Shown one piece after another: positions 1 through 25,500 of a DNA stretch of 27,380 bases. Position numbers and translations under genes: made by a program. Position 1 is the first letter of the stretch. Every line of letters starts with the position of its first letter. This stretch comes from a virus (taxonomy: Duplodnaviria; Heunggongvirae; Uroviricota; Caudoviricetes), in the IMG/VR virus record IMGVR_UViG_3300010280_000022, one strand, 5' to 3'. The notes beneath the pieces were generated by a model. The model ran no database searches. It was not told the origin of the DNA and worked only from the letters and a program-made list of their open reading frames with translations.

Positions 1-2420
1 CATATATTATTTGCCGACCTATGTACATACGTATTTACTATCGGCTTAGATGAAGATGAACCCTTAGCTCTCGAACCATCGATAAGACAGTCAGACACTG
101 ACATAAATCCTGAAACAAGGTTGTTACTCACATCCCAATCTATGGCCATTTTGTCAAAATAAACACTGCCAAGCATATATGTTTTTCCACCAGAATAGCC
201 TACAAACCTACGTAATACACCACCATAATGCTTGATGTAACTCCTAGTCATTCCTGATGTGATATTCATATATACAATATCCATATTGCACTCAATTCCG
301 TAAAGGCAAGATGCATATTCTGATATGTGTCCAACATAACATACAACTTTACATCCAGTTGATTCAGATGGAGTCAATTTAATTACAGGAATATCTCTTG
401 TAGATGCATCATGATATGAAATTGCCAACTCAAATCTTGCGTCTTTACCATTAAAAGTGCTACCAGTAAAATCTATCAACGACGGCATTTTAAAGTCACG
501 CAAAGGTGATGGCTGTGTTTTAAAGTTATTTTTAAATGATAAAATATTGAGTGTTACCTCAGAAGGCCAGTATATATTCGTCTGTACAATTATATTCTTC
601 GGAAGATGTAAAGTGCGCGGCTGGACAGGGTTCCCGGACGCGATAACATTGTCTGAACGACACAAAATCATATCCACCAAACCGGATGAACCCTCTGGAA
701 TACGAACGGATCCCCCACGGACTATGAAATCACCTTTATGTTCACCGTAATCCGTACGTACTCCAAACGGCCCTATGTGAGAATTGATGATCTGTGTTGC
801 CTCGTCGAACGCCCCAGTACCAACCAAGACGCCGCCAGGTATCCGACAATTATCAACAAGAATCTTTGAGCACCCATAGTGCATGTGAAAGCTATCAATA
901 TTACTGTCTCTCACAACTACATCCCTGCAATAGTTGCCGTCAATAGACCTCCACCCCTTACCCACTTCGCAGCCGATAAAAGTATGTTTAAGGGTGTACT
1001 CCATAGCTACGGTATAACGAGAATTATTATCCGTCTGCGTAATACCCGCACTCGTTAATCTCCAGTTAACTCCGTAGGTGGTAGAGCTACCAAAAATATT
1101 AGAATCTGTAGCTGTCATCCCCATGTCATTAAAGTAAACAACCTCAACATCAACTAAAGAACGTTGGATATCAAAAGCATAGCGTGAAAATTGACCAGTG
1201 AAACGCGGCAATACAATTTTATTACGCTTAGTTGGTAGCTTAAATAACGTACAAGTTACGGGGTCGTTGTAAGTATTTTTAAGACTGTAAGCCAATTCCC
1301 CTGGCTTAGTCATAAAGTTCACTTCACCTTTATATCTTGGGCTGAATACACCACCAATCAACCTATAGAGATCAACCTCTGTTGGACTTATTATTTTGAC
1401 GAGCGAATTACCCCACCCTGCTAAATCCTCAACACAAGAAAAAACTGAGGTTAACTCGTTCAATGGGTATGTTGATATATTAACTTCCTTTATATAATTA
1501 TCATCATCCCTTTCATCTTTATACACAACCTTTCCGTTTGTTAAGTGGAAAGTACAATTACTCAAATCAAAATCACCATATAGATATGTTTCTTTATCTA
1601 TGGTGAAAGTTAGTGGCGCGCTTGAGTATATTTTTATTGGTGTATTTTTATACTTATAAAATATAGCATTAAGCTGATCACTATTCCGCTCACCGTCTAG
1701 TGCGCTTATATCATATATATATAATCTGTTTTCTAATCCACCAATTAACTTATACCCATCAGGTTTAGCTAATTCAATTAGAACGTCTGAGGCAGATCCA
1801 GATGGTGGTAATACGACAAATGGATTACCATCATTATCAAAAGCAACCATCTTGTTTGCTCTTTCAATAGCATCAGGTAAGGAAGGTATTGATTCAGGAA
1901 CACGAAGAGTTTTGCTTAGATTGCTACCAGCAAGCGTATCCACGTAATTTTTTGTTGCCGCATCCTGCGGAAATCTGGGATCTCTCAGGTTACGAATATA
2001 ATTGTTCAAAGCATCATAATAATTAGCAATAAATGATGGTTTACGCAGAGCCAACCTGAACCAACTTCTAACCTGCTGTATCAGCATCGTCAGTTTATCG
2101 AATGCGTCTTCATGCACCTCAGCGAAGAACTTACCCTGGTTGCGCAGATCGGTATCCTGCGTAACCGGTAGCTCTCTTGATATAGAAATCTGATAACCGT
2201 TAACCAACGCCTTCGACAGAATTACATTGCCGCCGTTATACCCTCCCGCACCAGTGACTATGTAATCAGTATCAAGAATCAGCTCTGTGATGTTCTCGTT
2301 CAGGTCAACAACCTGCACTACTAAATCAGATTTCTGGAAAATCCTGAAGGTATAAGGGAATGTCGTTGTAACACCGTTACCGGTGTATTCGTTGTGGTCA
2401 ACTTCGGTTGAGACCGTCAT
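1..2420 (-). CDS. Tailspike / tail fibre protein, 3'-truncated by window edge (at least 806 aa); T7 gp17-like N-terminal anchor domain plus AT-rich divergent C-terminal region
   Basis: Minus frame open from ATG at 2420 (GGAG 8 nt upstream) to position 1; absent from ORF track because no stop lies in the window. N-terminus MTVSTEVDHNEYTGNGVTTTFPYTFRIF..LVVQVVDL..DTDYIV fits the conserved podovirus tail-fibre N-terminal pattern. Confidence 0.8.
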   Translation of the reverse strand, partial: MTVSTEVDHNEYTGNGVTTTFPYTFRIFQKSDLVVQVVDLNENITELILDTDYIVTGAGGYNGGNVILSKALVNGYQISISRELPVTQDTDLRNQGKFFAEVHEDAFDKLTMLIQQVRSWFRLALRKPSFIANYYDALNNYIRNLRDPRFPQDAATKNYVDTLAGSNLSKTLRVPESIPSLPDAIERANKMVAFDNDGNPFVVLPPSGSASDVLIELAKPDGYKLIGGLENRLYIYDISALDGERNSDQLNAIFYKYKNTPIKIYSSAPLTFTIDKETYLYGDFDLSNCTFHLTNGKVVYKDERDDDNYIKEVNISTYPLNELTSVFSCVEDLAGWGNSLVKIISPTEVDLYRLIGGVFSPRYKGEVNFMTKPGELAYSLKNTYNDPVTCTLFKLPTKRNKIVLPRFTGQFSRYAFDIQRSLVDVEVVYFNDMGMTATDSNIFGSSTTYGVNWRLTSAGITQTDNNSRYTVAMEYTLKHTFIGCEVGKGWRSIDGNYCRDVVVRDSNIDSFHMHYGCSKILVDNCRIPGGVLVGTGAFDEATQIINSHIGPFGVRTDYGEHKGDFIVRGGSVRIPEGSSGLVDMILCRSDNVIASGNPVQPRTLHLPKNIIVQTNIYWPSEVTLNILSFKNNFKTQPSPLRDFKMPSLIDFTGSTFNGKDARFELAISYHDASTRDIPVIKLTPSESTGCKVVCYVGHISEYASCLYGIECNMDIVYMNITSGMTRSYIKHYGGVLRRFVGYSGGKTYMLGSVYFDKMAIDWDVSNNLVSGFMSVSDCLIDGSRAKGSSSSKPIVNTYVHRSANNI

Positions 2421-2524
2421 GTTAAATCTCCAGATAGTCGCAGCACCCGTTGCGCCGCATATCCGGTTATTCTATTACCTGAAAAACCATATATGGATAG
2501 ACAACCCATAAATACGAACAGATA

Positions 2525-2539
2525 TTACCTTTCAGGTGA
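2525..2539 (+). promoter_or_regulatory. Dyad motif site A: TTACC-TTTCA-GGTGA
   Basis: One of five intergenic copies of ATTACC-N5-GGTRA; lies between tailspike start and the LexA-box gene. Confidence 0.45.
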
Positions 2540-2578
2540 TTCGCAAAACGTGCTGGATAGCAAATAAATTATTTGATA

Positions 2579-2594
2579 CTGTATATTTATACAG
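2579..2594 (+). promoter_or_regulatory. LexA (SOS) box CTGTATATTTATACAG
   Basis: Exact CTGT-N8-ACAG with AT-rich core, flanks taCTGT..ACAGtt; preceded by TTGATA (2573-2578); 22 nt upstream of ATG at 2616. Confidence 0.75.
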
Positions 2595-2615
2595 TTATTG
2601 CATGGAGAAGATAAG

Positions 2616-2873
2616 ATGCAGCAGTATCACTATCCACTGGAAGACGGATTTACCGAAAGGATTCACACGCCGGGAGGCGTCAGATCACTGGTGGAGGGAT
2701 CGCACTTGATGAAATTACTCCGGGATCTCGATAAGGATGGATTTAATGTCGATGGCCCACTTGCCGAACTGACTGCACTGATTAACTACGTCACCAGCTC
2801 ACAGATGTCTATGCGGGATCTGCAAACACATCTCGACTATTGTGCCGAACAATTACGAAAACAAACCAGATAA
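2616..2873 (+). CDS. Small protein (85 aa) paralogous to the C-terminal domain of the adjacent antirepressor; candidate SOS-inducible antirepressor or modulator
   Basis: ORF-track frame 2598..2873 begins at TTG; in-frame ATG at 2616 has GGAG 8 nt upstream. Motifs P.GV..L.E.S.LM.LL..L..DG..V.G..AELT and LRD.QTH..Y are shared with residues ~150-231 of the 3189..3884 protein. Confidence 0.7.
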   Translation: MQQYHYPLEDGFTERIHTPGGVRSLVEGSHLMKLLRDLDKDGFNVDGPLAELTALINYVTSSQMSMRDLQTHLDYCAEQLRKQTR

Positions 2874-2904
2874 GGTTTGCAATTACCAAGTGGAGTGCTT
2901 ATAT

Positions 2905-2919
2905 TTACCTTTGCGGTAA
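2905..2919 (+). promoter_or_regulatory. Dyad motif site E: TTACC-TTTGC-GGTAA, nested in a longer inverted repeat
   Basis: Perfect TTACC/GGTAA arms; flanked by AAGTGGAGTGCT (2888-2899) and AGCACTCCTCTT (2928-2939), inverted with one mismatch. Confidence 0.45.
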
Positions 2920-3010
2920 ATTTACATAGCACTCCTCTTGTGCCATAGTAATCGGGCACTGGCAAAATCCAGTGCCGGGATTGGCGTCCCGGATTACTAA
3001 AAGGCGCATT

Positions 3011-3031
3011 CACCGCGCAAGCGGTTTTTTT
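3011..3031 (+). terminator. Rho-independent terminator between the small LexA-controlled gene and the antirepressor gene
   Basis: Stem ACCGC/GCGGT with GCAA loop followed by six T. Confidence 0.6.
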
Positions 3032-3188
3032 ATGCGTATAGCACGGCCACATTCGTATTATGGTGGGCTGTGTGGGGGCACCGAAAGGTGCGCCGGGTCC
3101 TTTTAGCCGGTTACGCCAACCCTGCACAGTTCACCACCAACCGATTGGCGTCGGTAGTGGTGATTAACCAGACTAAAAGGTAACCACT

Positions 3189-3884
3189 ATGACAGCTACA
3201 AAAAGCACGTCCATTTTTTCTTTCGAATCCCAAGCCGATATACGGGTAATCGTCATTAATGGTGAGCCATGGTTTATCGCTTCAGATGTTTGTCGGGCTA
3301 TAGGCATAGCAAACCATCGAGATGCTGTTCGAAAACTTGATGATGATGAGAAGGGCGTCGCTTCAACCGACACCCCTGGCGGTGAGCAAGAATCGATCAT
3401 CATCTCCGAGTCAGGCCTCTACACACTGATCCTCCGCTGCCGCGATGCGGTGACACCAGGCACTATCCCATACCGCTTTCGTAAATGGGTTACAGGTGAG
3501 GTTCTTCCTCAGATCCGCCGCACCGGAAGTTACATTAAAAACTCGCTCACGCAGGAAGAACGCATAAAGATGGTTGCCGACCAGGTAGCCAACGCCACGG
3601 CGTCAGCAGTGATGCAGGCGATGAAGATAGAGAACAAAACCTACAGTGCCCCACTGAAGCCCGGCTACCGCAGCCTGATTCATTCGCCGTCTGGTGTTCT
3701 CGGCCTGACGGAGAACTCACTGCTGATGAATTTGCTGAACCAGTTACAGGAAGACGGGCACGATGTATCGGGCGCGGCGGCGGAACTGACCACCATGTTC
3801 TGCTACATCGTCGGTGTGAGCAAATGCCTGCGTGATATCCAGACTCACGCGGAGTACATCAACGACAAAGCAGGATTCTTCTGA
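3189..3884 (+). CDS. Bro-N family phage antirepressor (231 aa)
   Basis: N-terminal IRVIVINGEPWFIASDVCRAIGI...LDDDEKGV is the Bro-N/antirepressor signature; AAAAGG upstream of ATG; long structured leader. Confidence 0.8.
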   Translation: MTATKSTSIFSFESQADIRVIVINGEPWFIASDVCRAIGIANHRDAVRKLDDDEKGVASTDTPGGEQESIIISESGLYTLILRCRDAVTPGTIPYRFRKWVTGEVLPQIRRTGSYIKNSLTQEERIKMVADQVANATASAVMQAMKIENKTYSAPLKPGYRSLIHSPSGVLGLTENSLLMNLLNQLQEDGHDVSGAAAELTTMFCYIVGVSKCLRDIQTHAEYINDKAGFF

Positions 3885-3958
3885 CAGAACGGCGGCACAG
3901 GGATGTGCCTTTAAATAATTCTGTACAGATTGCAGACTGGGGGGTGAATAGAGTACTA

Positions 3959-3973
3959 TTACCTTACGGGTGA
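3959..3973 (+). promoter_or_regulatory. Dyad motif site C: TTACC-TTACG-GGTGA
   Basis: Same ATTACCTT left arm as other sites; sits ~40 nt upstream of the mini-ORF and terminator that precede the membrane-protein gene. Confidence 0.4.
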
Positions 3974-4063
3974 TCCATAGCGATTAGGCACCGATACAGG
4001 AGGAGCCCACATGAGAAAATTTGACGAGTACGAAGGCGTTTAACATTCGGATAGTTTAATGAC

Positions 4064-4084
4064 GGGGCCATTAGGCCCCGTTTT
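4064..4084 (+). terminator. Terminator/attenuator hairpin directly upstream of the membrane-protein gene
   Basis: GGGGCC-ATTA-GGCCCC then GTTTT; ends 18 nt before GTG at 4103. Confidence 0.5.
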
Positions 4085-4102
4085 CATGTCTGGAGACAGT
4101 TT

Positions 4103-4642
4103 GTGTTAAGTGAAGAAATGCAATTTGCCATGGCTGTGGCTCAAATCGTAAGTGCAGTCGCGGTTTCGCTTGGCTTGTTCATAGCTATCGCTACTATTAT
4201 TTATAATGTAAATACAGCGAGAAAAGTACACACTTCAGTATTCCTTGGTGAAAGCAGGTTTGATGTAGATTATAAGAAAGGCCTATCTACTATGCGCCGC
4301 ATTCACGAATCGAACAAATCATTCCGCTCTTATATGTATCCAAGCAATGGGCAGGCTGATCTTACGGATGAAGAAAAGATAGAGAAGAGAGAAATAATTT
4401 ACTGTCTAGGTTTCTACGAACGCATGGCTGTGAGCGTGAAGCGGAAAACTTATGATGAGACCATGATTAAGGAAGTATTTTACAGCTCCGTTGTAAATAA
4501 CTATCAGATTGCGCTACCTCTTATACAAGCTATTAGAGAAAAAGAAAACATAAACACATATTTTAAAGAATATGAATGGTTGGCCACACGATGGAAGGAT
4601 TGTCCATTGAAAGATAAATCCCCGTGGTACAAGTTTTGGTAA
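4103..4642 (+). CDS. AT-rich inner-membrane protein (179 aa; one N-terminal TM helix); candidate superinfection-exclusion/defence moron
   Basis: GTG start with GGAG 6 nt upstream (alternative ATG at 4118); hydrophobic segment FAMAVAQIVSAVAVSLGLFIAIATIIY; AT-rich codon usage unlike the flanking structural genes; strong terminator follows. Confidence 0.7.
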   Translation: MLSEEMQFAMAVAQIVSAVAVSLGLFIAIATIIYNVNTARKVHTSVFLGESRFDVDYKKGLSTMRRIHESNKSFRSYMYPSNGQADLTDEEKIEKREIIYCLGFYERMAVSVKRKTYDETMIKEVFYSSVVNNYQIALPLIQAIREKENINTYFKEYEWLATRWKDCPLKDKSPWYKFW

Positions 4643-4663
4643 GCCCGCGACGCGGGCTTTTTT
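4643..4663 (+). terminator. Rho-independent terminator after the membrane-protein gene
   Basis: GCCCGCG..CGCGGGC hairpin immediately after TAA, followed by six T. Confidence 0.7.
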
Positions 4664-4735
4664 GTGGACGAAACAAAAGTCAGTGCTACACTCATTGACG
4701 CCACATTGAGGTGGCTTATAGATGGAAATTTCACA

Positions 4736-4897
4736 ATGAAAAAAGCATTTGCTGCACTGTTCGTTTTGTTGTCTCTGGTAGCTTCAACTCAGGCCTTTGC
4801 CGGTCGTTGTCAGCACGACAGCGATACTGCCGCTGACGGCTCCCGCTGCGGTGGGCGTTCTGCGGATTCCCGCCCGGGCGGCGGTGGCATTCGTTAA
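4736..4897 (+). CDS. Small secreted peptide (53 aa; signal peptide plus ~31-aa Gly/Arg/Asp-rich mature part with 2 Cys)
   Basis: MKKAFAALFVLLSLVASTQAFA is a typical Sec signal with AXA site; upstream TTGACG (4695-4700), 16-bp spacer, TATAGA. ORF-track N-terminal extension from 4664 rejected. Confidence 0.5.
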   Translation: MKKAFAALFVLLSLVASTQAFAGRCQHDSDTAADGSRCGGRSADSRPGGGGIR

Positions 4898-4919
4898 AAA
4901 CAAGGCCGCGAAAGCGGCC
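4891..4919 (-). terminator. Terminator at the end of the minus-strand late operon
   Basis: Hairpin GGCCGC-GAAA-GCGGCC (4904-4919); on the minus strand it is followed by TTGTTTTTAACGA. Confidence 0.6.
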
Positions 4920-4933
4920 TGTGACATGTCACA

Positions 4934-5494
4934 CTACATTGATATATGATTCATAAAGTAGCTTAAAGATTTACTTCCCAGAAAAGAAATTTCTTTTCCT
5001 GGATATGTCGCAATAATTGAGCATGACTTATCCCCGTTAGAGGTAACAAATCCTGAATAACCTACTTGTTCTTTACCATTTTGTTGCTTGGCTAAAAAGT
5101 AGAGGTAGCTTATCTTTTTGCCCTCTGGGTAAAACTCTGCCAAACCAGTATCGGTGATTGAATATTTTATTCTCCCGCCTTGAGTAACGTTTTCCATCTC
5201 AAGTTTAGCTATGTCTTTTCTGTTGTATTCAGCATTGATTTTCCTTTCGAAATCAATGTTGTTTTCAAATGAGTAGGAAGCAACAGTCTGAATAGATGGG
5301 AACACGTTTATCTGGATGCCTCCACAGTCGGCACAGGTATAAAGGTATGAATCAGATGGAATCCCCATAAAAGAAAACTGAGTTACCTTAAATTTATCGC
5401 TATCTCCAAAGTATTGAAGTTCGCATTTAACATTTTGCCCTGCAAAAGAAAATGCAGACATCAATATTGAAACAAAAAATATAATTGCCTTCAT
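4934..5494 (-). CDS. AT-rich secreted/periplasmic protein (186 aa), last gene of the late operon; function unknown
   Basis: Signal peptide MKAIIFFVSILMSAFSFA; four Cys; ATG 3 nt after the stop of the upstream 850-aa gene; composition much more AT-rich than the core genes. Confidence 0.7.
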   Translation of the reverse strand: MKAIIFFVSILMSAFSFAGQNVKCELQYFGDSDKFKVTQFSFMGIPSDSYLYTCADCGGIQINVFPSIQTVASYSFENNIDFERKINAEYNRKDIAKLEMENVTQGGRIKYSITDTGLAEFYPEGKKISYLYFLAKQQNGKEQVGYSGFVTSNGDKSCSIIATYPGKEISFLGSKSLSYFMNHISM

Positions 5495-19392: not shown

Positions 19393-19685
19393 TCCTGTTC
19401 ACTGGCCTCTTTGGCCATCTTCAAATACTGTTCAGGGCAATGCGCCATAACGCGCTGAAACAGTTCCAGCGCCAGATTGCGTTGCCCCTCATTAAATGCC
19501 ATTGCCATAGCGTCCATCGGTGAGATAGCGGAAAACACACGGCCTTTCTCCAGCACCGACCAGACAACGCGACGCCCCTGTTCACTGCTCATGACAAAGC
19601 GAATGTCATCAATTTCACGCTGCGCCATGTCACGTTGCTTACGGGCGTTTTCTTCTTTCAGTTGATCGTCTTCGTAATCTGTCAT
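19389..19685 (-). CDS. Hypothetical protein (98 aa) between portal and scaffold
   Basis: ATGA-type overlaps with both neighbours suggest translational coupling. Confidence 0.55.
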   Translation of the reverse strand: MTDYEDDQLKEENARKQRDMAQREIDDIRFVMSSEQGRRVVWSVLEKGRVFSAISPMDAMAMAFNEGQRNLALELFQRVMAHCPEQYLKMAKEASEQE

Positions 19686-21361
19686 TGTGATTGCCCACCC
19701 TGACCACTAACTGCATTCGCCATAGCTGACAAAACACTCGGATCCGAAGTTTTAGCTTCACTTAGCGTCTTGGCACCCTGTGCCGCCGCCATCCCCATCG
19801 CCATCATTTGTTGCTGCTGTTGTTGCTGTGCCCGTTGCTGGCGAGCCTGCTCAACCTGTTCCTGCGGAACAATGACGGTTGGAGACACTCCGGACATATC
19901 AGCGAATGCATCGATCGCCTGATCAACGTTGAGTTTGTCGAGAGCTTCTGGTTTCGCTTGCGCAAGTTGACCAATGAAGTTAACCGTGGACGCCAGACTG
20001 GACAGGCCGATAGACTTCTGCGCCTGAGCCATGACGGAAATGTATTCGACCTTCAGGGGCATGCCTTCCATCGCGTCAGGCGGTGGCGGCAGCATGTTTT
20101 TACGCACCATCATCGAGAAAGCGCGGTCAATGAGAGGATTAAGACATTCGTCGTTCAGACGCTCCAGAACCGGCCCCAACATCAGAAGTTTTTCTTCTTT
20201 CATTTCGATCACCGCTTCAACAGGCATCGAGCGGGTATTGATGTTCTGCAACATCATGAACAGATCGACAAAGTAGGCGCTGTTAATGATTTGACGAGTG
20301 TCCTGAATGTCTGCCACCAGATCTGCTGTACTGGGGTTAACCAGATAAGCAGGCCTGAAGCCATCCTGACCAGTAATCTGATCGATATACGTGATGTCGC
20401 CAGGAAGAAGGGAGGCGCGCTGATTCTTGAGGGAAGTCGGAGCAACCATCGGCGGATTGGTGGCTTTATCAATCAACTGCGACTTGCGCTTCTGGAGAAG
20501 CTGCAATGCCTTAACAGGTCCAAGCGCCAGCATACCCGGGCATGATGATCCATAAACATCTTCGCCGTTAACTTCCCAGCGCGGAGCCATAATTGGAAAC
20601 TCATCAAATCCGGACTCACGCAACAACTTGTCGTTATCGCCACCAACCTCGTAATAAACCGATTTGAATGGCTTGTTCTTGCTATCCAGCTTCGAAGTAT
20701 CGCGGTCAATGTTCGGGTAAACCGAATGCATCACTTCAATCCACTTCTCGTAGGTGCCGCTTTCCCACATGCTTTTTACGGATTCGCTGACGTTATTTAG
20801 CCCGAACTCCTGAACAAGCTGACGAACAGTCATAGAGAACTTGCGAAAACAGGTGTCCACACTGCCACGAGGTGAGTTAGCCAGGTAGTAACTGCCTATC
20901 GGGAATGGCATTGTGCGAATGATGTCCTCGTCATCCTCCAGCACTGCCATTGCACCAGTGCTGTATGTGCCGAGGCTTCCGTATAACTGCGGCAGCGACT
21001 GATAGAGATTCGACTTATTGAACATATCGTTCATGCGGTTCTGCACCGCCTCAAGCCACAACTTAACAGGGCCATAATCCATCATTTCAGGATCTGGCGT
21101 AGCCAGGCGAAACCACGGACGCGCGGGGCTTGTGATGCCTGACATCATGCCACTAGCGAGAGTGCGCGCCGCCATAGTCCCGGTCGAATCAATAATGCGT
21201 GTATTGCGTCGATCGTTACGGTTGACCTCAGAAGTCAGAAAGCGGGAACCACGCGGGTTGATGTAATCACTCAACTCGCGCCAGTGCGGCTCGAACGACT
21301 GACGCTCGCTTTCAAGTTGTGCGAACTGTTTGTTCAATCGCTCTTTAGTTGTTTCCGCCAT
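19682..21361 (-). CDS. Portal (head-to-tail connector) protein, T7 gp8-like (559 aa)
   Basis: Q-rich stretch followed by MMAMGMAAAQGA near the C-terminus and an ERL...P N-terminal pattern recall T7 gp8; GGAG 8 nt upstream. Confidence 0.8.
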   Translation of the reverse strand: MAETTKERLNKQFAQLESERQSFEPHWRELSDYINPRGSRFLTSEVNRNDRRNTRIIDSTGTMAARTLASGMMSGITSPARPWFRLATPDPEMMDYGPVKLWLEAVQNRMNDMFNKSNLYQSLPQLYGSLGTYSTGAMAVLEDDEDIIRTMPFPIGSYYLANSPRGSVDTCFRKFSMTVRQLVQEFGLNNVSESVKSMWESGTYEKWIEVMHSVYPNIDRDTSKLDSKNKPFKSVYYEVGGDNDKLLRESGFDEFPIMAPRWEVNGEDVYGSSCPGMLALGPVKALQLLQKRKSQLIDKATNPPMVAPTSLKNQRASLLPGDITYIDQITGQDGFRPAYLVNPSTADLVADIQDTRQIINSAYFVDLFMMLQNINTRSMPVEAVIEMKEEKLLMLGPVLERLNDECLNPLIDRAFSMMVRKNMLPPPPDAMEGMPLKVEYISVMAQAQKSIGLSSLASTVNFIGQLAQAKPEALDKLNVDQAIDAFADMSGVSPTVIVPQEQVEQARQQRAQQQQQQQMMAMGMAAAQGAKTLSEAKTSDPSVLSAMANAVSGQGGQSQ

Positions 21362-21375
21362 TTCAATGACTCCGG

Positions 21376-21582
21376 TTACTGACCAAGTAGCGTTTTACCG
21401 CTGGTATTAGCGGTTGATGTGTCGCCCTGAGAACCGGTAAGCAGCGTAGAACTACGACCAGCAGCAGCGCGACGGCGACGAGTTTCTTCGTCGCGGGCAT
21501 CAACAACGGCGGCATCCTGCTCCTGTGGTGCTGCCTGAACTTCTGGTGTTGCAGGCACTGATGGTGAGCTACCCATGCACAT
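21376..21582 (-). CDS. Small Ala/Gln/Arg-rich protein (68 aa) upstream of portal
   Basis: Same RBS context GGAGTCATTGA(T/A)ATG as portal; the overlapping 21363..21602 frame looks non-coding. Confidence 0.5.
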   Translation of the reverse strand: MCMGSSPSVPATPEVQAAPQEQDAAVVDARDEETRRRRAAAGRSSTLLTGSQGDTSTANTSGKTLLGQ

Positions 21583-21672
21583 ATCAATGACTCCGTACGC
21601 AATTAAATTATTACCAATTTAACCACATATGATTTATTTATCGTAGACAGTTGACATTTAACGCACGAATTA

Positions 21673-21687
21673 TTACCTTTCAGGTAA
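21673..21687 (+). promoter_or_regulatory. Dyad motif site B: TTACC-TTTCA-GGTAA (perfect inverted repeat)
   Basis: Perfect palindrome 17 bp downstream of a TTGACA hexamer (21651-21656); heads the tRNA/moron insertion. Confidence 0.5.
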
Positions 21688-22009
21688 CCAAAGAGTTCAT
21701 TCCGGTTACTAACCTGACTGGCTTGTCGTTAAATTGAACAGGTGGAGTGAGCTTTTATTTTGATCAGTACGGCGTATGGCACATGCGCCGATAGCGGTCT
21801 GGATACGTTTAAGGGGCACCCTCCCTTGCTCGGGCAAACGAACCAGGTAGCCGGAATGTGCAAGTCGAGCGGTTTTATTCCGCGCACGGGGATTCACCAT
21901 CCCGGCGATTCGGTGTGACGCCTCGGAAGAGACGAGGGTACAACGATGAGAGCATTTATGGAGCCGCGACAAAGTGTGGTGCCTTAACAGGCTAAGTGCT
22001 CTCAGCGTT

Positions 22010-22086
22010 GTGGCATTAGCTCAGTCGGACAGAGCAACCGCCTTCTAAGCGGTTGGTCGCAGGTTCGAATCCTGCATGCCACGCCA
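22010..22086 (+). tRNA. tRNA-Arg (anticodon UCU, reads AGA), phage-type
   Basis: Acceptor stem GTGGCAT/ATGCCAC, D-arm AGCTCAGTCGGACAGAGC, anticodon loop CTTCTAA, T-arm GCAGGTTCGAATCCTGC, discriminator G plus CCA. Confidence 0.85.
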
Positions 22087-22249
22087 GAATCACGCCTAAG
22101 GACCGTGATGCCAGAAGTTCCAGGTGCTTGGCGGTGATGGTTTCCCTTGAAGAACTATCACCGCCCTTTTTACAGCAGGACGCCATTGCGATGACTTCAT
22201 GCTGTAAACCAGTACAGCCACGGAAGGCATAACTCATTGCTTCCAGTTC

Positions 22250-22273
22250 GCCCGGTTCGCCGGGCATTTTTTT
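22250..22273 (+). terminator. Rho-independent terminator downstream of the tRNA
   Basis: GCCCGG-TTCG-CCGGGC followed by ATTTTTTTG. Confidence 0.7.
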
Positions 22274-22289
22274 GCTTGATGACCGCAAA

Positions 22290-22304
22290 TTACCTTAAAG
22301 GTAT
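22290..22304 (+). promoter_or_regulatory. Dyad motif site D: TTACC-TTAAA-GGTAT, abutting TATAAT and the moron ATG
   Basis: ATTACCTTAAAGGTATAATcATG; right arm overlaps an AAGG Shine-Dalgarno-like element 7 nt from ATG at 22309. Confidence 0.45.
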
Positions 22305-22308
22305 AATC

Positions 22309-23127
22309 ATGAAAAACTTCAAGGTAATTAGCATGTTTGAATCGTTTAAAGAGCTGTTTTTATCTACTGCCAATACTGCCGTGAATAGAGCCAAAAACCC
22401 TGTGCTTGGTGCTTTTGTTATGTCCTGGTGCGCCTTCAACTGGAAATCAATTCTTTATCTATTTTTTAGCAAATCAAACATAATAGATAAAATTTCATAT
22501 ATCTCAGATAACAGCACATGGAAAACTGTTATGTTTTATCCATGCTTATCTGTAATTGCTATCTGCTGCCTATTACCATGGGTAAACAATATCATTAACG
22601 TATGGCAAGCAAAGCCTCTTGATAATAATGACTCAATCGAAAATCACCTGAAGGCAAGAAAAATCCAGCGTGAAACAAGACTGCAGAGGTTATTGGCTAA
22701 AAAAGATGTTACATACGACAAAGTTAAGACTGGCGCGGAAAAAGACATCCAAGAGATGAAAGAAGAGATTATTCGATCAAAGAATAGTATGGGGGAATTG
22801 ACTGCCGAGTTGAAAGCTAAAGATGACGAATTGAGATCCGCCAGTGCTCAGTTAGCAGCTCTAAATCATTCATTAAAAGAGATATCGGAAACTCTTGGAA
22901 GAATGAATGAGGCATATAAGACCCTCCAAAATGATTTCGACGAATACAAACTCAAATACCCTGAAAAATCTCAAATAAAAAGCCTTGCACTTGGCAACGG
23001 CCAAACAATTAGCAACTTTTTGGAGCAACACAACTTATCCGGATTAAAATCTGGTAAGCCAAACGTTTTTAATAACTTTGGTGTTCTATCTGGATTATCA
23101 GGTTTCGAGGATAAAAATAAAGACTAA
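22309..23127 (+). CDS. AT-rich moron: membrane-anchored protein with C-terminal coiled coil (272 aa); candidate abortive-infection/superinfection-exclusion factor
   Basis: Two hydrophobic segments (PVLGAFVMSWCAFNW..., VMFYPCLSVIAICCLLPWV) then a long charged heptad-like region; opposite strand and markedly more AT-rich than the flanking terL and portal genes. Confidence 0.7.
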   Translation: MKNFKVISMFESFKELFLSTANTAVNRAKNPVLGAFVMSWCAFNWKSILYLFFSKSNIIDKISYISDNSTWKTVMFYPCLSVIAICCLLPWVNNIINVWQAKPLDNNDSIENHLKARKIQRETRLQRLLAKKDVTYDKVKTGAEKDIQEMKEEIIRSKNSMGELTAELKAKDDELRSASAQLAALNHSLKEISETLGRMNEAYKTLQNDFDEYKLKYPEKSQIKSLALGNGQTISNFLEQHNLSGLKSGKPNVFNNFGVLSGLSGFEDKNKD

Positions 23128-24599
23128 GCATATGGATCGTACTCGGTAAGCGCCTTGCCTTGCTGGTTCTGCTGCCCGGGAAGTCGCAGGCGCTTTGACA
23201 CCGGGAAAGCAAACGTCAGCAGTAGCGCATCGCCTTTACCAGGCGAACGCCCAAGCCGCTCCTTGATATCTTCCTTCGGTTCGATAACGATTTTACCGTC
23301 CACTCGAACTTTGTACTCTGCCGCCGACAGATCGTCCGCTGTTTCCTGGTCATCCAGCATCCCGCCCAGCCTCAGCCATGTCTTGCATGAGTTGAACATC
23401 TCCCCACGCTTGTTGAGCATCTGCGGGTCAGTAGACGCGCCACCGAACGGAACAAGTTGCCATGTGCGCCCCCAACCGTCACCGATTGACTTCAGACCGG
23501 TACCGTAACCAAAGTCGATGAACACTGCGTCAGCCTGATACAGGTCTTCAAAGTCAGCGATACGCTTCGCCATAATCAGATCGTCGGTAGTCTTGTTGCC
23601 AGTCCACAGCACCTTACTGTGTAGCCCCTGCCGCAGGTATATCACCGCGTCATCAACGCCTGAATATGCCGGGTCAACACCGATTATCACCGGAGCATGC
23701 GCCACCTGCGCAGCGGTTACCACCCGTTTCATTGCCTCATCAGTAAGACCGGTAGGGATAAACTGCAATTCAGATGCATCAGGGAATATGCCGCGCACAC
23801 GGATTTTAACGAAGTCGCTGTCTTCCCCGTAGTCATCAACCCATTTCTGCAACTGCTGTTTGTTAGTGCCTTCCACCGTCCGGCTGTCAATCTGCGCAGT
23901 TTTCCAGCGGTGTTTATATTTGCGGAAACATTCGCGGAAACGCCCGGTGTTACGTGTAGGGTTTCCGAACGCCACCCAGATAATCTCAGTGTCTTCGTCC
24001 GTAAGCGCACCCTCAGCAACTTCCCACACCAGATCCGCAATGTTCGACGCTTCATCGAATACCACGATGATGCGTTTGCGCTCGTTGTGTAGTCCGGCGA
24101 ATGCCTCAGTGTTGTGCTCAGACCAGGGGATTGCGTCAGCTCGCCACCGCTTGTCGTGCCCAGGATCATTGCTGTACATCGCGGTAGCGGTACAGGTAAA
24201 CCAGTCTTTCGTGATAGCAAGGTTCGACCACTTGATAATTTCCGGCCAGGTCTTCGTTCGTAGCTGGTTGTCGGTGTTGGCAGTCACCACGACCTTACAA
24301 TCCTCGCAAGTGGACATGCCCCAGTTGATCAGCATTGAGATGAATGCTGATTTACCAATACCGTGACCCGAAGCGCGTGCCAGCATAAGCGGCTGATAGC
24401 GCGTCTCTGGATTCTGCAGGTGATCACGTATCTCTCGGAACGCATCGGCCTGCCACTGACGTGGGCCGGTAGCATGTGCCAGTTCAGTCCCCTCTTCCCC
24501 CCACGGGAACGCATAGAGGGCATAGCCAAGCGGATCGTGAGTGAACCCTGCAATATCCTCGATCAACTGCTCTTCAGGAGATAACGCTGTATCTGTCAC
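23124..24599 (-). CDS. terL: Terminase large subunit (491 aa)
   Basis: Walker A-like ASGHGIGKS, Walker B-like IIVVFDEAS, C-terminal nuclease-type acidic motifs; GTG start overlapping the terS stop. Confidence 0.85.
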   Translation of the reverse strand: MTDTALSPEEQLIEDIAGFTHDPLGYALYAFPWGEEGTELAHATGPRQWQADAFREIRDHLQNPETRYQPLMLARASGHGIGKSAFISMLINWGMSTCEDCKVVVTANTDNQLRTKTWPEIIKWSNLAITKDWFTCTATAMYSNDPGHDKRWRADAIPWSEHNTEAFAGLHNERKRIIVVFDEASNIADLVWEVAEGALTDEDTEIIWVAFGNPTRNTGRFRECFRKYKHRWKTAQIDSRTVEGTNKQQLQKWVDDYGEDSDFVKIRVRGIFPDASELQFIPTGLTDEAMKRVVTAAQVAHAPVIIGVDPAYSGVDDAVIYLRQGLHSKVLWTGNKTTDDLIMAKRIADFEDLYQADAVFIDFGYGTGLKSIGDGWGRTWQLVPFGGASTDPQMLNKRGEMFNSCKTWLRLGGMLDDQETADDLSAAEYKVRVDGKIVIEPKEDIKERLGRSPGKGDALLLTFAFPVSKRLRLPGQQNQQGKALTEYDPYA

Positions 24600-25192
24600 T
24601 GATTACCATCCTGACGTTCTTTGAGTCGCTTCCTGGCTGCTGCTATGCGATCAGCAATTGTCACATTCACATTAACATCCAGACGTTCTTTGAACGCGTT
24701 GACATCAACATGCTTACCAATCAGCTCAAGGTTCTTCACCTTGTCAGGCCATTTAATTTTTTTGAGGATTGTCTCTATCGAATCCTCGTTCATGTTCATG
24801 ATGGTCGATGACAGATCAAAGCCACTAAGCGTAGTGCGCCAGATTTTCGGCCACTCACGGATTGGTTTAAGGCTCCCATCGTCGTTGAGGATGTCGATCA
24901 CGTCCATCTGGTCGATCTCCACCAGGCGCATGAGAACGTAATCAGCACTGACGCGCATTCGTTTGTTGCGCTCCTCCATCAACTCGGCAATCCGTTTTTG
25001 AATGCGTTCATCGCGCATCATGACACTGGCTTTAACTGCCGCTGTATTTGGGGAGAATCCTGCGTTAATCGCTGCCTGAGTCTGGTTTTCAGGCGTTTTG
25101 ATGTATGACTGGCAATAAGCCTCCTGCATTGCTGTGAGCGGCTTAAATTGCGTTGATTTGCGTTTATAGGTTTTAGGTTCAGCAGGCATCAT
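24596..25192 (-). CDS. terS: Terminase small subunit (198 aa)
   Basis: ...LELIGKHVDVNAFKE... is a terminase small-subunit type signature; start moved to ATG at 25192 because the first 26 residues of the ORF-track call are a Thr/Ile-rich read-through. Confidence 0.65.
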   Translation of the reverse strand: MMPAEPKTYKRKSTQFKPLTAMQEAYCQSYIKTPENQTQAAINAGFSPNTAAVKASVMMRDERIQKRIAELMEERNKRMRVSADYVLMRLVEIDQMDVIDILNDDGSLKPIREWPKIWRTTLSGFDLSSTIMNMNEDSIETILKKIKWPDKVKNLELIGKHVDVNAFKERLDVNVNVTIADRIAAARKRLKERQDGNQ

Positions 25193-25201
25193 AACCACCG
25201 T

Positions 25202-25231
25202 GGTAATAGTTACCGTTGTGGTAATAGTACC
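25202..25231 (-). repeat. Tandem palindromic repeats GGTAATAGT(T)ACC x2 in the terS leader
   Basis: Copies at 25202-25214 and 25220-25231, 10-40 nt upstream of the terS start. Confidence 0.5.
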
Positions 25232-25232
25232 A

Positions 25233-25261
25233 TGCAAAATAAAGCCGCCATAGTTGGCGGC
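25233..25261 (-). terminator. Rho-independent terminator between the nin-like genes and terS
   Basis: Minus-strand GCCGCCA-ACTA-TGGCGGC followed by TTTATTTTG. Confidence 0.6.
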
Positions 25262-25266
25262 AGTAT

Positions 25267-25500
25267 TCAAAGTCCATCAAATCCATCGTAAAAACTCTCG
25301 TCAAGATACCCTTCCCATTTACCGCGAATGAAAATTACATCCTCGCCGCAAGGGTGCTGACTGTCGATAACTATATCCCTCCTGGCGCAACCATACTTAT
25401 GCATGAGAAATTTAACCTCTTTCGGAAAATTTGCTGAGTTATCTCTCATATCTTCAAGGTCGTAGCGTATTTTTGGCATAACACCTTCGTGACATGTCAC
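25267..25500 (-). CDS. Hypothetical protein (77 aa)
   Basis: ORF in a compact minus-strand array with overlapping stop/start codons. Confidence 0.5.
   Translation of the reverse strand: MTCHEGVMPKIRYDLEDMRDNSANFPKEVKFLMHKYGCARRDIVIDSQHPCGEDVIFIRGKWEGYLDESFYDGFDGL

Follow-up and report, generated by a model that had tools for sequence, protein, structure and literature searches.

Two short dyads in this prophage, here called site B and site D, are probably operators of the phage master repressor (Rep), each of them overlapping a predicted sigma-70 promoter of the plus strand. The 27.4-kb window, i.e. the whole stretch of DNA that was analysed, is an epsilon15/phiV10-type prophage (genus Uetakevirus), its orientation being reversed with respect to the reference records. 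Judged by its sequence, the dyad family is the predicted operator of the prophage master repressor, distributed phage-wide. This operator family, including the copy before gp3, is already known, since it is annotated in the public record. The new detail is a modest one: a single accessory gene family has a conserved promoter and putative operator, in both accessory islands of these phages and beyond.

The genes of the minus strand follow the order terS, terL, gp3, portal gene, head genes, internal virion proteins and tail-fibre gene. The last of these starts at 2420 and is truncated by the left end of the window. Genes of the plus strand are found in two small islands (Table 1). The region of the tRNA island shows 97-98% identity to phiV10, to the O157 typing phages 9 and 10, to phiv142-3 and to ZX5, and about 79% identity to the Salmonella phages SPN1S, SPC32H and epsilon15. 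A LexA box precedes ant in island 1, and a box at this place has reportedly been described for SPC32H too. The possibility that the dyads themselves are LexA boxes was rejected; the real one is the element listed in the table.

Table 1. Genes, RNAs and sequence elements of the window in the order of their positions
Feature	Position	Strand	Remarks
Island 1	about 2420-4930	+	ant, isrK and C4 RNAs, Bro-N antirepressor, DUF4760 gene
Putative operator, 1 mismatch	2525-2539		between tail-fibre start (2420) and ant; homologue of the annotated epsilon15 site 19895-19911
LexA box, CTGTATATTTATACAG	2579-2594		upstream of ant
ant, small antirepressor gene	2616-2873		in island 1
Putative operator, perfect	2905-2919		directly 5' of the isrK/C4 RNA and Bro-N antirepressor module
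Operator-like site, 1 mismatch	3959-3973		between Bro-N antirepressor gene and DUF4760 gene
Portal gene	19682-21361	-
gp3 homologue	21376-21582	-	first gene of the head-morphogenesis block
Island 2	about 21590-23127	+	leader, tRNA-Arg(UCU), one cargo gene
TTACC half-site	21611-21615		exactly 62 bp from site B, in the near-invariant 60 nt beside gp3
Promoter candidate 2	TAGACA 21644-21649, 18 nt, AATTAT 21668-21673	+	promoter-scan match; ends on the first base of the operator
Promoter candidate 1	TTGACA 21651-21656, 17 nt, TACCTT 21674-21679	+	conserved TTGAC; -10 is the left half of the operator
Site B, TTACCTTTCAGGTAA	21673-21687		TTACC-TTTCA-GGTAA, perfect 5+5 dyad
Leader, 320-nt	21688-22009	+	GC-rich, structured; fold z-score -2.6
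tRNA-Arg (anticodon UCU)	22010-22086	+
Intrinsic-terminator-like hairpin with T-run	22130-22165	+
Intrinsic-terminator-like hairpin with T-run	22250-22265	+
Predicted sigma-70 promoter of the cargo gene	22279-22307	+	ATGACC, 17-nt spacer, TATAAT; 10/12 consensus matches
Site D, TTACCTTAAAGGTAT	22290-22304		TTACC-TTAAA-GGTAT, 1 mismatch in the last base
Cargo gene	22333-23127	+	264-aa product, membrane N-terminus and coiled coil, phrog_4780 (function unknown)
terL	23124-24599	-
terS	24596-about 25192	-
Tandem pair of putative operators	25192-25206 (1 mismatch) and 25210-25224 (perfect)		flanked by a terminator and by the start codon of terS

Both dyads were recognised in the first-pass annotation, at 21673-21687 and 22290-22304, and both were confirmed, the former as a perfect dyad and the latter with one mismatch. 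The members of the motif family that it listed at 2525, 2905 and 3959 are likewise all present, the copy at 2905 being perfect and the other two having one mismatch each; an identical copy of the 2905 operator is found in phiV10 at 20497. A tandem pair before terS (25192/25210), the homologue of the epsilon15 site 12-27, had been missed. The enrichment is conspicuous: the pattern TTACCN5GGTAW has 7 strand-matches (4 sites) in the window where 0.06 are expected, and if up to one mismatch is allowed, 8 dyad sites are found against an expectation of 0.43. Non-coding DNA makes up 6.6% of the window and holds 7 of the 8 dyad sites (binomial P ~4e-8). The eighth, at 5118 (TTGCC...GGTAA), lies inside a gene and was treated as probably due to chance. 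The dyads were also considered as intrinsic terminators or RNA hairpins and rejected as such, their stems being 5 bp long, A/T-rich and without a T-run. Neither site B nor site D was among the terminators found by a scan of the window, and an Rfam search returned no family over site B, site D or the leader.

The dyads are assigned to the master repressor, as its putative operators, because the motif matches the annotation of epsilon15, clusters around rep, and a relative of the window, L004, encodes a Rep homologue. The epsilon15 record (AY150271.2) contains seven features labelled 'protein_bind: repressor (lysogeny)', all of which have the form ATTACC-N5-GGTAAT. Site B agrees with this pattern in 15/15 core bases and in 16/17 if the flanks are included (ATTACCTTTCAGGTAAC); the corresponding values for site D are 14/15 and 15/17 (ATTACCTTAAAGGTATA). 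In complete relatives, copies of the motif cluster to either side of rep (PL, PR/PRM), and the motif is also seen after the replication genes and before terS, ant/tail fibre, the lysis genes and int. Moreover, operator pairs that are exactly 62 bp apart recur in epsilon15, phiV10, SPC32H and L004. The rep gene is located outside the window. L004, a prophage at guaA of E. coli O22:H8, has an island 2 identical to that of the window, and its rep gene (29400-29984) is flanked by motif pairs. The L004 repressor is 42% identical to SPC32H Rep over the full length and matches PDB 5D50 at E = 4e-42. When complete E. coli genomes were sought for the cognate rep, the best one covered 93% of the query at 98.5% identity.

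As for earlier work, Kropinski et al. reportedly proposed these epsilon15 operators and their consensus in 2007, and full-text literature searches returned nothing specific on the operator consensus or on 'SPC32H operator'. Kim et al. (2013/2016) are said to have found that Rep is a tetramer inactivated by Ant, and Kim and Ryu are said to have reported in 2013 that Rep is removed by Ant and not cleaved with the help of RecA. According to secondary sources, Rep is a tetramer that binds palindromic sites, and the antirepressor Ant disassembles it (PMC9638917; PMC9986798).

The distribution of the motif bears on a proposal of the first-pass annotation, namely that a shared cis-element co-regulates the cargo of the plus strand. 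It holds in so far as there is one real family on both islands, lying over candidate promoters, which fits control by one protein. The element is not, however, specific to plus-strand cargo: it also stands before terS on the minus strand and, in relatives, at rep and at the replication and int genes mentioned above.

Site B is homologous in position to the 'protein_bind repressor' feature 2931-2947 of epsilon15. It is situated 90 bp upstream of the gp3 start codon, and the offset is equal in epsilon15, SPC32H, phiV10 and L004 as well as in Tyrion (Enterobacter), a Klebsiella phage, PAT1 and three further prophages. Within the viral-contig collection site B is kept in 80/80 close relatives, whatever the cargo. 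As the 90-bp offset is fixed in every relative checked, regardless of the cargo, sequence comparison identifies site B as part of the phage backbone and not of the cargo. In epsilon15 site B is present and the tRNA is absent. The idea that sites B and D bracket the tRNA/moron insertion can be retained for the tRNA segment, which is indeed bracketed, but the cargo gene lies outside, site D being found between the tRNA and the cargo gene.

The surroundings of site B were aligned for seven phages with Escherichia, Salmonella, Enterobacter and Klebsiella hosts. About 60 nearly invariant bases adjoin the gp3 start codon. There is also an invariant CGTAG and an invariant TTGAC(A), both read on the plus strand of the window, and after the latter a 16-nt stretch that is fixed in length and variable in sequence, and then the operator. 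Two promoter candidates can be drawn in this region (21644-21679, Table 1), candidate 2 being the one that the scan detects in the E. coli phages. Both of them aim at the leader and the tRNA-Arg, i.e. away from gp3, and apart from these the promoter scan revealed nothing promoter-like on the plus strand from site B to the tRNA. A -10 hexamer that ends at the first T of TTACC is an arrangement that recurs at the PL-like promoter of L004 and at site 2905 of the window. From these positions we infer that Rep at site B would shut off a candidate promoter for the leader and tRNA unit. Auxiliary half-sites were sought 48, 62 and 76 bp from every dyad, and only site B has one, at -62. This half-site (21611) may serve as an auxiliary site for a tetrameric repressor.

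With regard to the hexamers as such, TACCTT, the candidate -10 of site B, is a weak one, and the Salmonella phages do not share TAGACA, the alternative -35.

Part of the leader downstream of site B (21769-22013) is conserved in unrelated prophages and in P1-like plasmids. The tRNA itself belongs to an indel that, in comparison with epsilon15, spans about 21805-22135. On the tRNA side, phiV10, SPC32H and epsilon15 are homologous to the window as far as 22273, which is the last T of the second terminator. In these three phages and in most of the 80 relatives the cargo starts right after the T-run, with a conserved ribosome-binding site (GGGCATTTTTTT|AAGGTGAGATTATG). This junction is common to at least 8 different cargo genes, none of which has a promoter or dyad of its own; in the window the sequence after the T-run is GCTTGATGACCGCAAATTACCTTAAAGGTATAAT. 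The edges of the cassette are at 22273/22274 (terminator T-run, conserved Shine-Dalgarno) and at about 23127 (terL stop codon), and copies of the cassette are present in both Uetakevirus islands as well as in prophages of other types.

The cargo gene probably starts at the ATG at 22333, since the alignment with phrog_4780 sets in at residue 9 and diverged homologues have MFE or MLE as their first residues; AAGG precedes this ATG. The ATG that adjoins site D is at 22309, not 22310, and lies 1 nt past the -10 hexamer. At the other end the stop codon overlaps the convergent terL stop codon (23124-23127), and a scan 3' of the cargo gene found no plus-strand terminator-like site. AGA accounts for 5 of the 8 arginine codons of the cargo gene, as against 3.9 AGA per 1000 codons when all genes of the window are counted. 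The tRNA-Arg(UCU) reads AGA, and this usage fits, as weak support, a co-expression of tRNA and cargo. A role of the cargo protein in defence was rejected, PADLOC giving only weak coiled-coil matches. A scan of genome contigs for the cargo family produced no match; the homologues came from the protein database and from contig look-ups.

As two terminators lie just upstream, the cargo gene needs its own promoter, and a predicted sigma-70 promoter is found directly before it. Site D fills the spacer of this promoter and extends into the beginning of the -10 hexamer. Epsilon15, SPC32H and phiV10 have no counterpart of site D, i.e. there is no annotated homologue. A second dyad in the island occurs in 17/80 relatives, and in all 17/17 it precedes a gene of the phrog_4780-like family; the other 63/80 carry different cargo in the slot and have no site D. 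The first-pass annotation had named relatives with the same genes but no motif as evidence against its reading, and such relatives were not found: the motif stands before every such gene in 29 viral contigs, in one of them with an extra mismatch.

The conservation of site D was compared in 8 diverged lineages of the cargo gene family in Uetakevirus contexts. These include E. coli alleles that are 71%, 57% and 37% identical at the amino-acid level, all of which are preceded by the motif, one more distant member, and representatives from Salmonella, from Enterobacter and from a K. michiganensis prophage at guaA, where the cassette is in the other island. The T-run, xTGACy, TTACC, TT, GGTA and nAT are invariant throughout. 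The sequence varies in the 5' UTR over its full length, in the middle of the dyad and in the 5 bases that separate the dyad from the -35. In other words, the geometry of promoter and dyad (xTGACy, 5 nt, dyad, nAT) is unchanged in the 8 lineages. Such a pattern is the one expected of a protein-binding dyad inside a promoter. The last base of site D takes all four values among the homologues, and part of the conservation of the site is explained by the promoter, since its TA doubles as the start of the -10 hexamer.

The dyad has decayed in 2 of the 3 contexts without Rep-type operators: in a lambdoid K. variicola prophage the right half-site was lost by a 1-nt deletion, and the Cronobacter copy has a dyad with two mismatches. 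The third context is a K. pneumoniae prophage whose immunity is of the P22-Cro/CI type, with different operators; its dyad is retained with one mismatch. In this small sample the decay is compatible with relaxed selection where Rep is absent. Site B qualifies as a putative operator by its sequence and position, and site D by its sequence and promoter context only.

Other explanations of the two sites have to be weighed against this. Site B might control the head operon of the minus strand (gp3, portal and onward) and not the tRNA unit of the plus strand, an option that deserves real consideration even though we would not give it an even chance. Rep at site B, perhaps bridged to the half-site 62 bp nearer gp3, would then block or loop out a late promoter, and the proximity of the tRNA would be incidental. 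This is suggested by the epsilon15 record, which lists the homologue of site B with features on the gp3 side, and by the offset to the gp3 start codon, which stays the same in all relatives. The 21611 half-site, moreover, is at the spacing of the operator pairs and overlaps TGGTAATAAT, which on the gp3 strand looks like an extended -10, and the operators before terS mean that late genes do carry them. On the other hand, site B itself overlaps no convincing conserved -35/-10 pair of the minus strand, as judged by inspection, and it is on the plus strand that the invariant TTGACA reads; the half-site has a length of just 5 bp, and its match was spotted after the fact. A minus-strand promoter with site B at its -35 was considered separately and rejected, the candidate -10 hexamers not being conserved (by inspection). 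We note that roles of site B towards gp3 and towards the plus strand are not mutually exclusive. As regards site D, it could be a promoter sequence that was inherited together with the mobile cassette and that resembles an operator by descent or by chance, or it could be the site of another protein, so that the gene would be on in lysogens; classical morons are expressed from the prophage. The complete unit of hairpin, promoter, dyad and gene in the K. pneumoniae prophage speaks for this, as do the last base of the dyad, which overlaps the -10 and is free to vary, and the fact that most cargo genes in the slot are without a dyad. Against it, TTACC lies in a promoter spacer that is normally unconstrained and yet is invariant in 8 lineages diverged to 37% protein identity, the 5 bases in the middle of the dyad vary in the manner of genuine operators, and the lambdoid and Cronobacter copies have a degraded dyad. 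In addition, the chance of a 1-mismatch site within the ~50-bp cargo promoter is only about 0.001, as calculated from the window-wide expectation. We regard such a reading of site D as rather improbable.

The first-pass annotation had also raised the possibility that the dyads were used when the cargo was acquired, i.e. that they are recombination or insertion signals for the tRNA and the cargo. At first glance the homologies are suggestive: on the gp3 side, the homology to SPC32H and epsilon15 spans 21582-21687 and stops exactly at the outer edge of site B, and the variable cassette begins 16 bp to the left of site D. Weaker homology resumes past site B, however (21722-21804 and 21767-21956), the tRNA indel has its ends elsewhere, and the edges of the cassette are the terminator T-run and the terL stop codon, not the dyads. 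The cargo was swapped without site D in 63/80 relatives, the backbone site B is present in the tRNA-less epsilon15, the dyads are not direct repeats of each other, and the motif is concentrated around rep. A use as repeats of site-specific recombination was rejected as well, no junctions being found inside the dyads at the ends of inserted segments, in the window or in relatives. The attP core of the phage is a different sequence, attgagtgggaatgatt (PMC9782041). A part of the dyads in cargo acquisition is accordingly very hard to credit.

We return to the reading of sites B and D as operators of the master repressor. The repressor would belong to the Rep/gp38 family, that is, it would be tetrameric, with an XRE-type helix-turn-helix, and would be inactivated by the small antirepressor Ant and not by cleavage. 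Site B would lie over the -10 and the start region of a promoter directed away from gp3, towards the leader and tRNA-Arg(UCU), and in relatives read-through from this promoter would extend to cargo genes that lack one. In the lysogen, Rep on sites B and D would block RNA polymerase, and the tRNA as well as the cargo gene would be silent. Once Ant has removed Rep, both promoters would fire together with the early and late operons that bear the same operator.

A wider picture can be drawn, which we offer tentatively and as less than probable in its entirety. The phrog_4780-like family would carry a portable module of hairpin, promoter and Rep operator, so that cargo and tRNA-Arg(UCU) would be wired to the master repressor and switched on only at induction, as a kind of 'lytic-phase moron'. 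A single repressor would directly gate nearly every unit of the phage, possibly via operator pairs looped at the 62-bp spacing. It is a matter of observation that the module of hairpin, promoter and dyad of the phrog_4780-like genes is found in both Uetakevirus islands and occasionally in unrelated prophages. The paired sites and the higher-order oligomer together suggest cooperative binding or looping.

Among known systems, the operators of epsilon15 gp38 and SPC32H Rep (PDB 5D50/5D4Z) come closest; they have the same dyad ATTACC-N5-GGTAAT. The sites before gp3, terS and ant/tailspike correspond, and a homologous repressor is encoded in relatives with the same island. The differences are that the cargo family with the site D promoter is absent from the slot of epsilon15, SPC32H and phiV10, and that the E. 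coli repressor, represented by L004, is only 42% identical to SPC32H Rep although the half-sites are unchanged.

There is also a likeness to C1 of phage P1, where one repressor has operators scattered over many units, including an antirepressor module with a C4-type RNA. The C1 Op sites of P1 are dispersed, with Op51 at the immI c4-icd-ant operon and Op72 at ban. Its counterpart in the window is the perfect dyad at 2905, directly after which come the isrK and C4 RNAs and the Bro-N antirepressor gene. P1 operators are asymmetric 17-mers bound by a monomer; the element described here is, in contrast, a symmetric dyad for a putative tetramer of the XRE family, and there is no sequence relationship between the two proteins.

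As at OR and OL of lambda CI, the dyad operators overlap -35/-10 elements and there are paired sites, here 62 bp apart. The operators of lambda are confined to the immunity region and its late genes are governed via Q antitermination, whereas in the present phages operators also stand before the packaging, head, tail-fibre, tRNA and cargo units. A further difference from lambda is that Rep is reportedly removed by Ant and not by RecA-assisted cleavage.

Finally, the cargo gene resembles a moron in the sense of Hendrix: it is a variable accessory gene between conserved late genes, on the opposite strand, with a predicted promoter of its own, and it is exchanged among phages. Unlike a typical moron, it has a promoter that carries the putative operator of the resident repressor, which predicts silence in the lysogen, and its terminator is upstream of the gene with none downstream. 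Most of the sister cargo genes in the slot, furthermore, lack a promoter and begin right after the T-run.

These findings leave current concepts of phage regulation unchanged. What the map of operators provides is a list of units that are probably silent in the lysogen, i.e. packaging, head, tail-fibre/antirepressor, tRNA and one cargo gene. This is of practical interest, as phages of the phiV10 type serve as reporter and typing phages for E. coli O157. The morons in this slot, moreover, would not be uniformly expressed in the lysogen: most of them are without a promoter, and those of one family are probably blocked by the repressor.

Operator pairs are repeatedly found exactly 62 bp apart, start-to-start, in four genomes (see the table), and spacings of 17-18, 30, 48 and 76 bp also recur. 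At site B (21673), the operator dyad upstream of gp3, only a TTACC half-site is present at 62 bp (21611), within a near-invariant 60-nt block before gp3. The repeated pairs and this half-site suggest that two operator sites are bridged by the tetrameric repressor. The long terS reading frame from the TTG would cross both operators of the tandem pair at 25192/25210 as well as a terminator hairpin. An ATG just past the second operator (~25192), like that of epsilon15, is the more likely start.

Coordinates of the features in the window and in related loci
Feature	Sequence	Position	Remark
Consensus LexA box CTGTATATTTATACAG	window	2579-2594	just 5' of ant
ant, small antirepressor gene	window	2616-2873	85 aa, phrog_450
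Perfect operator	window	2905-2919	heads immI-like module
Predicted isrK promoter, TTTACA-17-CATAGT	window	2921-2949	-35 adjoins operator 2905-2919
isrK RNA	window	2956-3031	77.9 bits
C4 antisense RNA	window	3056-3141	77.7 bits
Bro-N antirepressor gene	window	3189-3884	last in immI-like module
GC-rich leader stretch	window	21769-22013 (+)	~245 nt
Leader copy	L132	2501-2748	E. coli chromosome
Leader copy	L133	2501-2669	P1-like plasmid context
Long terS reading frame	window	24596-25270	TTG start at 25270, following phiV10 annotation
Copy of ATTACCTTAAAGGTATA	L005	26869-26885
Copy of ATTACCTTAAAGGTATA	L006	26959-26975
Copy of ATTACCTTAAAGGTATA	L004	35185-35201	minus strand
62-bp operator pairs	L003	32555/32617, 35907/35969
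62-bp operator pairs	L004	26961/27023, 30042/30104
62-bp operator pairs	L005	31953/32015, 35070/35132
62-bp operator pairs	L006	33604/33666, 35972/36034

The 17-mer ATTACCTTAAAGGTATA of site D (window 22289-22305), the operator-like dyad in the cargo-gene promoter, is identical to a site that precedes the integrase gene by ~40-55 bp in phiV10, SPC32H and the E. coli O22:H8 prophage L004, in all of which it is enclosed by a larger inverted repeat, GACGGTAT...ATACCGTC. The pre-integrase site of epsilon15 differs by one base.

The terminator/cargo junction (window 22266-22273) was compared with its equivalents in the relatives L002, L003 and L006 and the close relatives L039-L118. The cargo gene of most relatives begins straight after a strong-looking terminator (GCCCGGTTCGCCGGGC followed by T7); its ribosome-binding site, AAGGTGA, is conserved, and it has no promoter. 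This junction is common to at least eight unrelated cargo genes. Read-through and antitermination are candidate routes for their expression. Five of the eight arginine codons in the window cargo gene (22333-23127) are AGA; this codon is absent from several of the major structural genes (capsid, portal, terminase). The cargo gene shares its strand with the tRNA-Arg(UCU) gene, located 250 bp further upstream. A Uetakevirus-like prophage of K. michiganensis (L134 1-20612) adjoins guaA-guaB-xseA, the attachment locus of phiV10, and has the cargo cassette with its dyad in the tail-fibre/antirepressor island, not in the terL/gp3 slot.

Many E. coli chromosomes contain copies, at ~84% identity, of the GC-rich leader stretch between site B and the tRNA; one such copy, unannotated, lies directly 3' of the ymfK LexA-family repressor gene and upstream of yfdP. 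In P1-like plasmids the interval from tRNA-Ile to dnaB/ban contains the first ~165 nt of the stretch. It matched no Rfam family, and it folds better than shuffled sequence on the plus strand (z = -2.6), less so on the minus strand (z = -1.5). A possible identity is a structured RNA, as yet undescribed, or tRNA leader that unrelated phages have in common.

A module similar to phage P1 immI is present within this Uetakevirus (2905-3884), in the order operator, isrK RNA, C4 RNA, Bro-N antirepressor gene. The operator is centred near -44 relative to the likely isrK start, a position at which Rep, the master repressor of epsilon15-like phages, could activate isrK instead of repressing it. The LexA box before ant agrees with SPC32H, whose Ant switch is reportedly under LexA control. 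With this unit beside the Bro-N module, the phage has two adjacent antirepressor modules.
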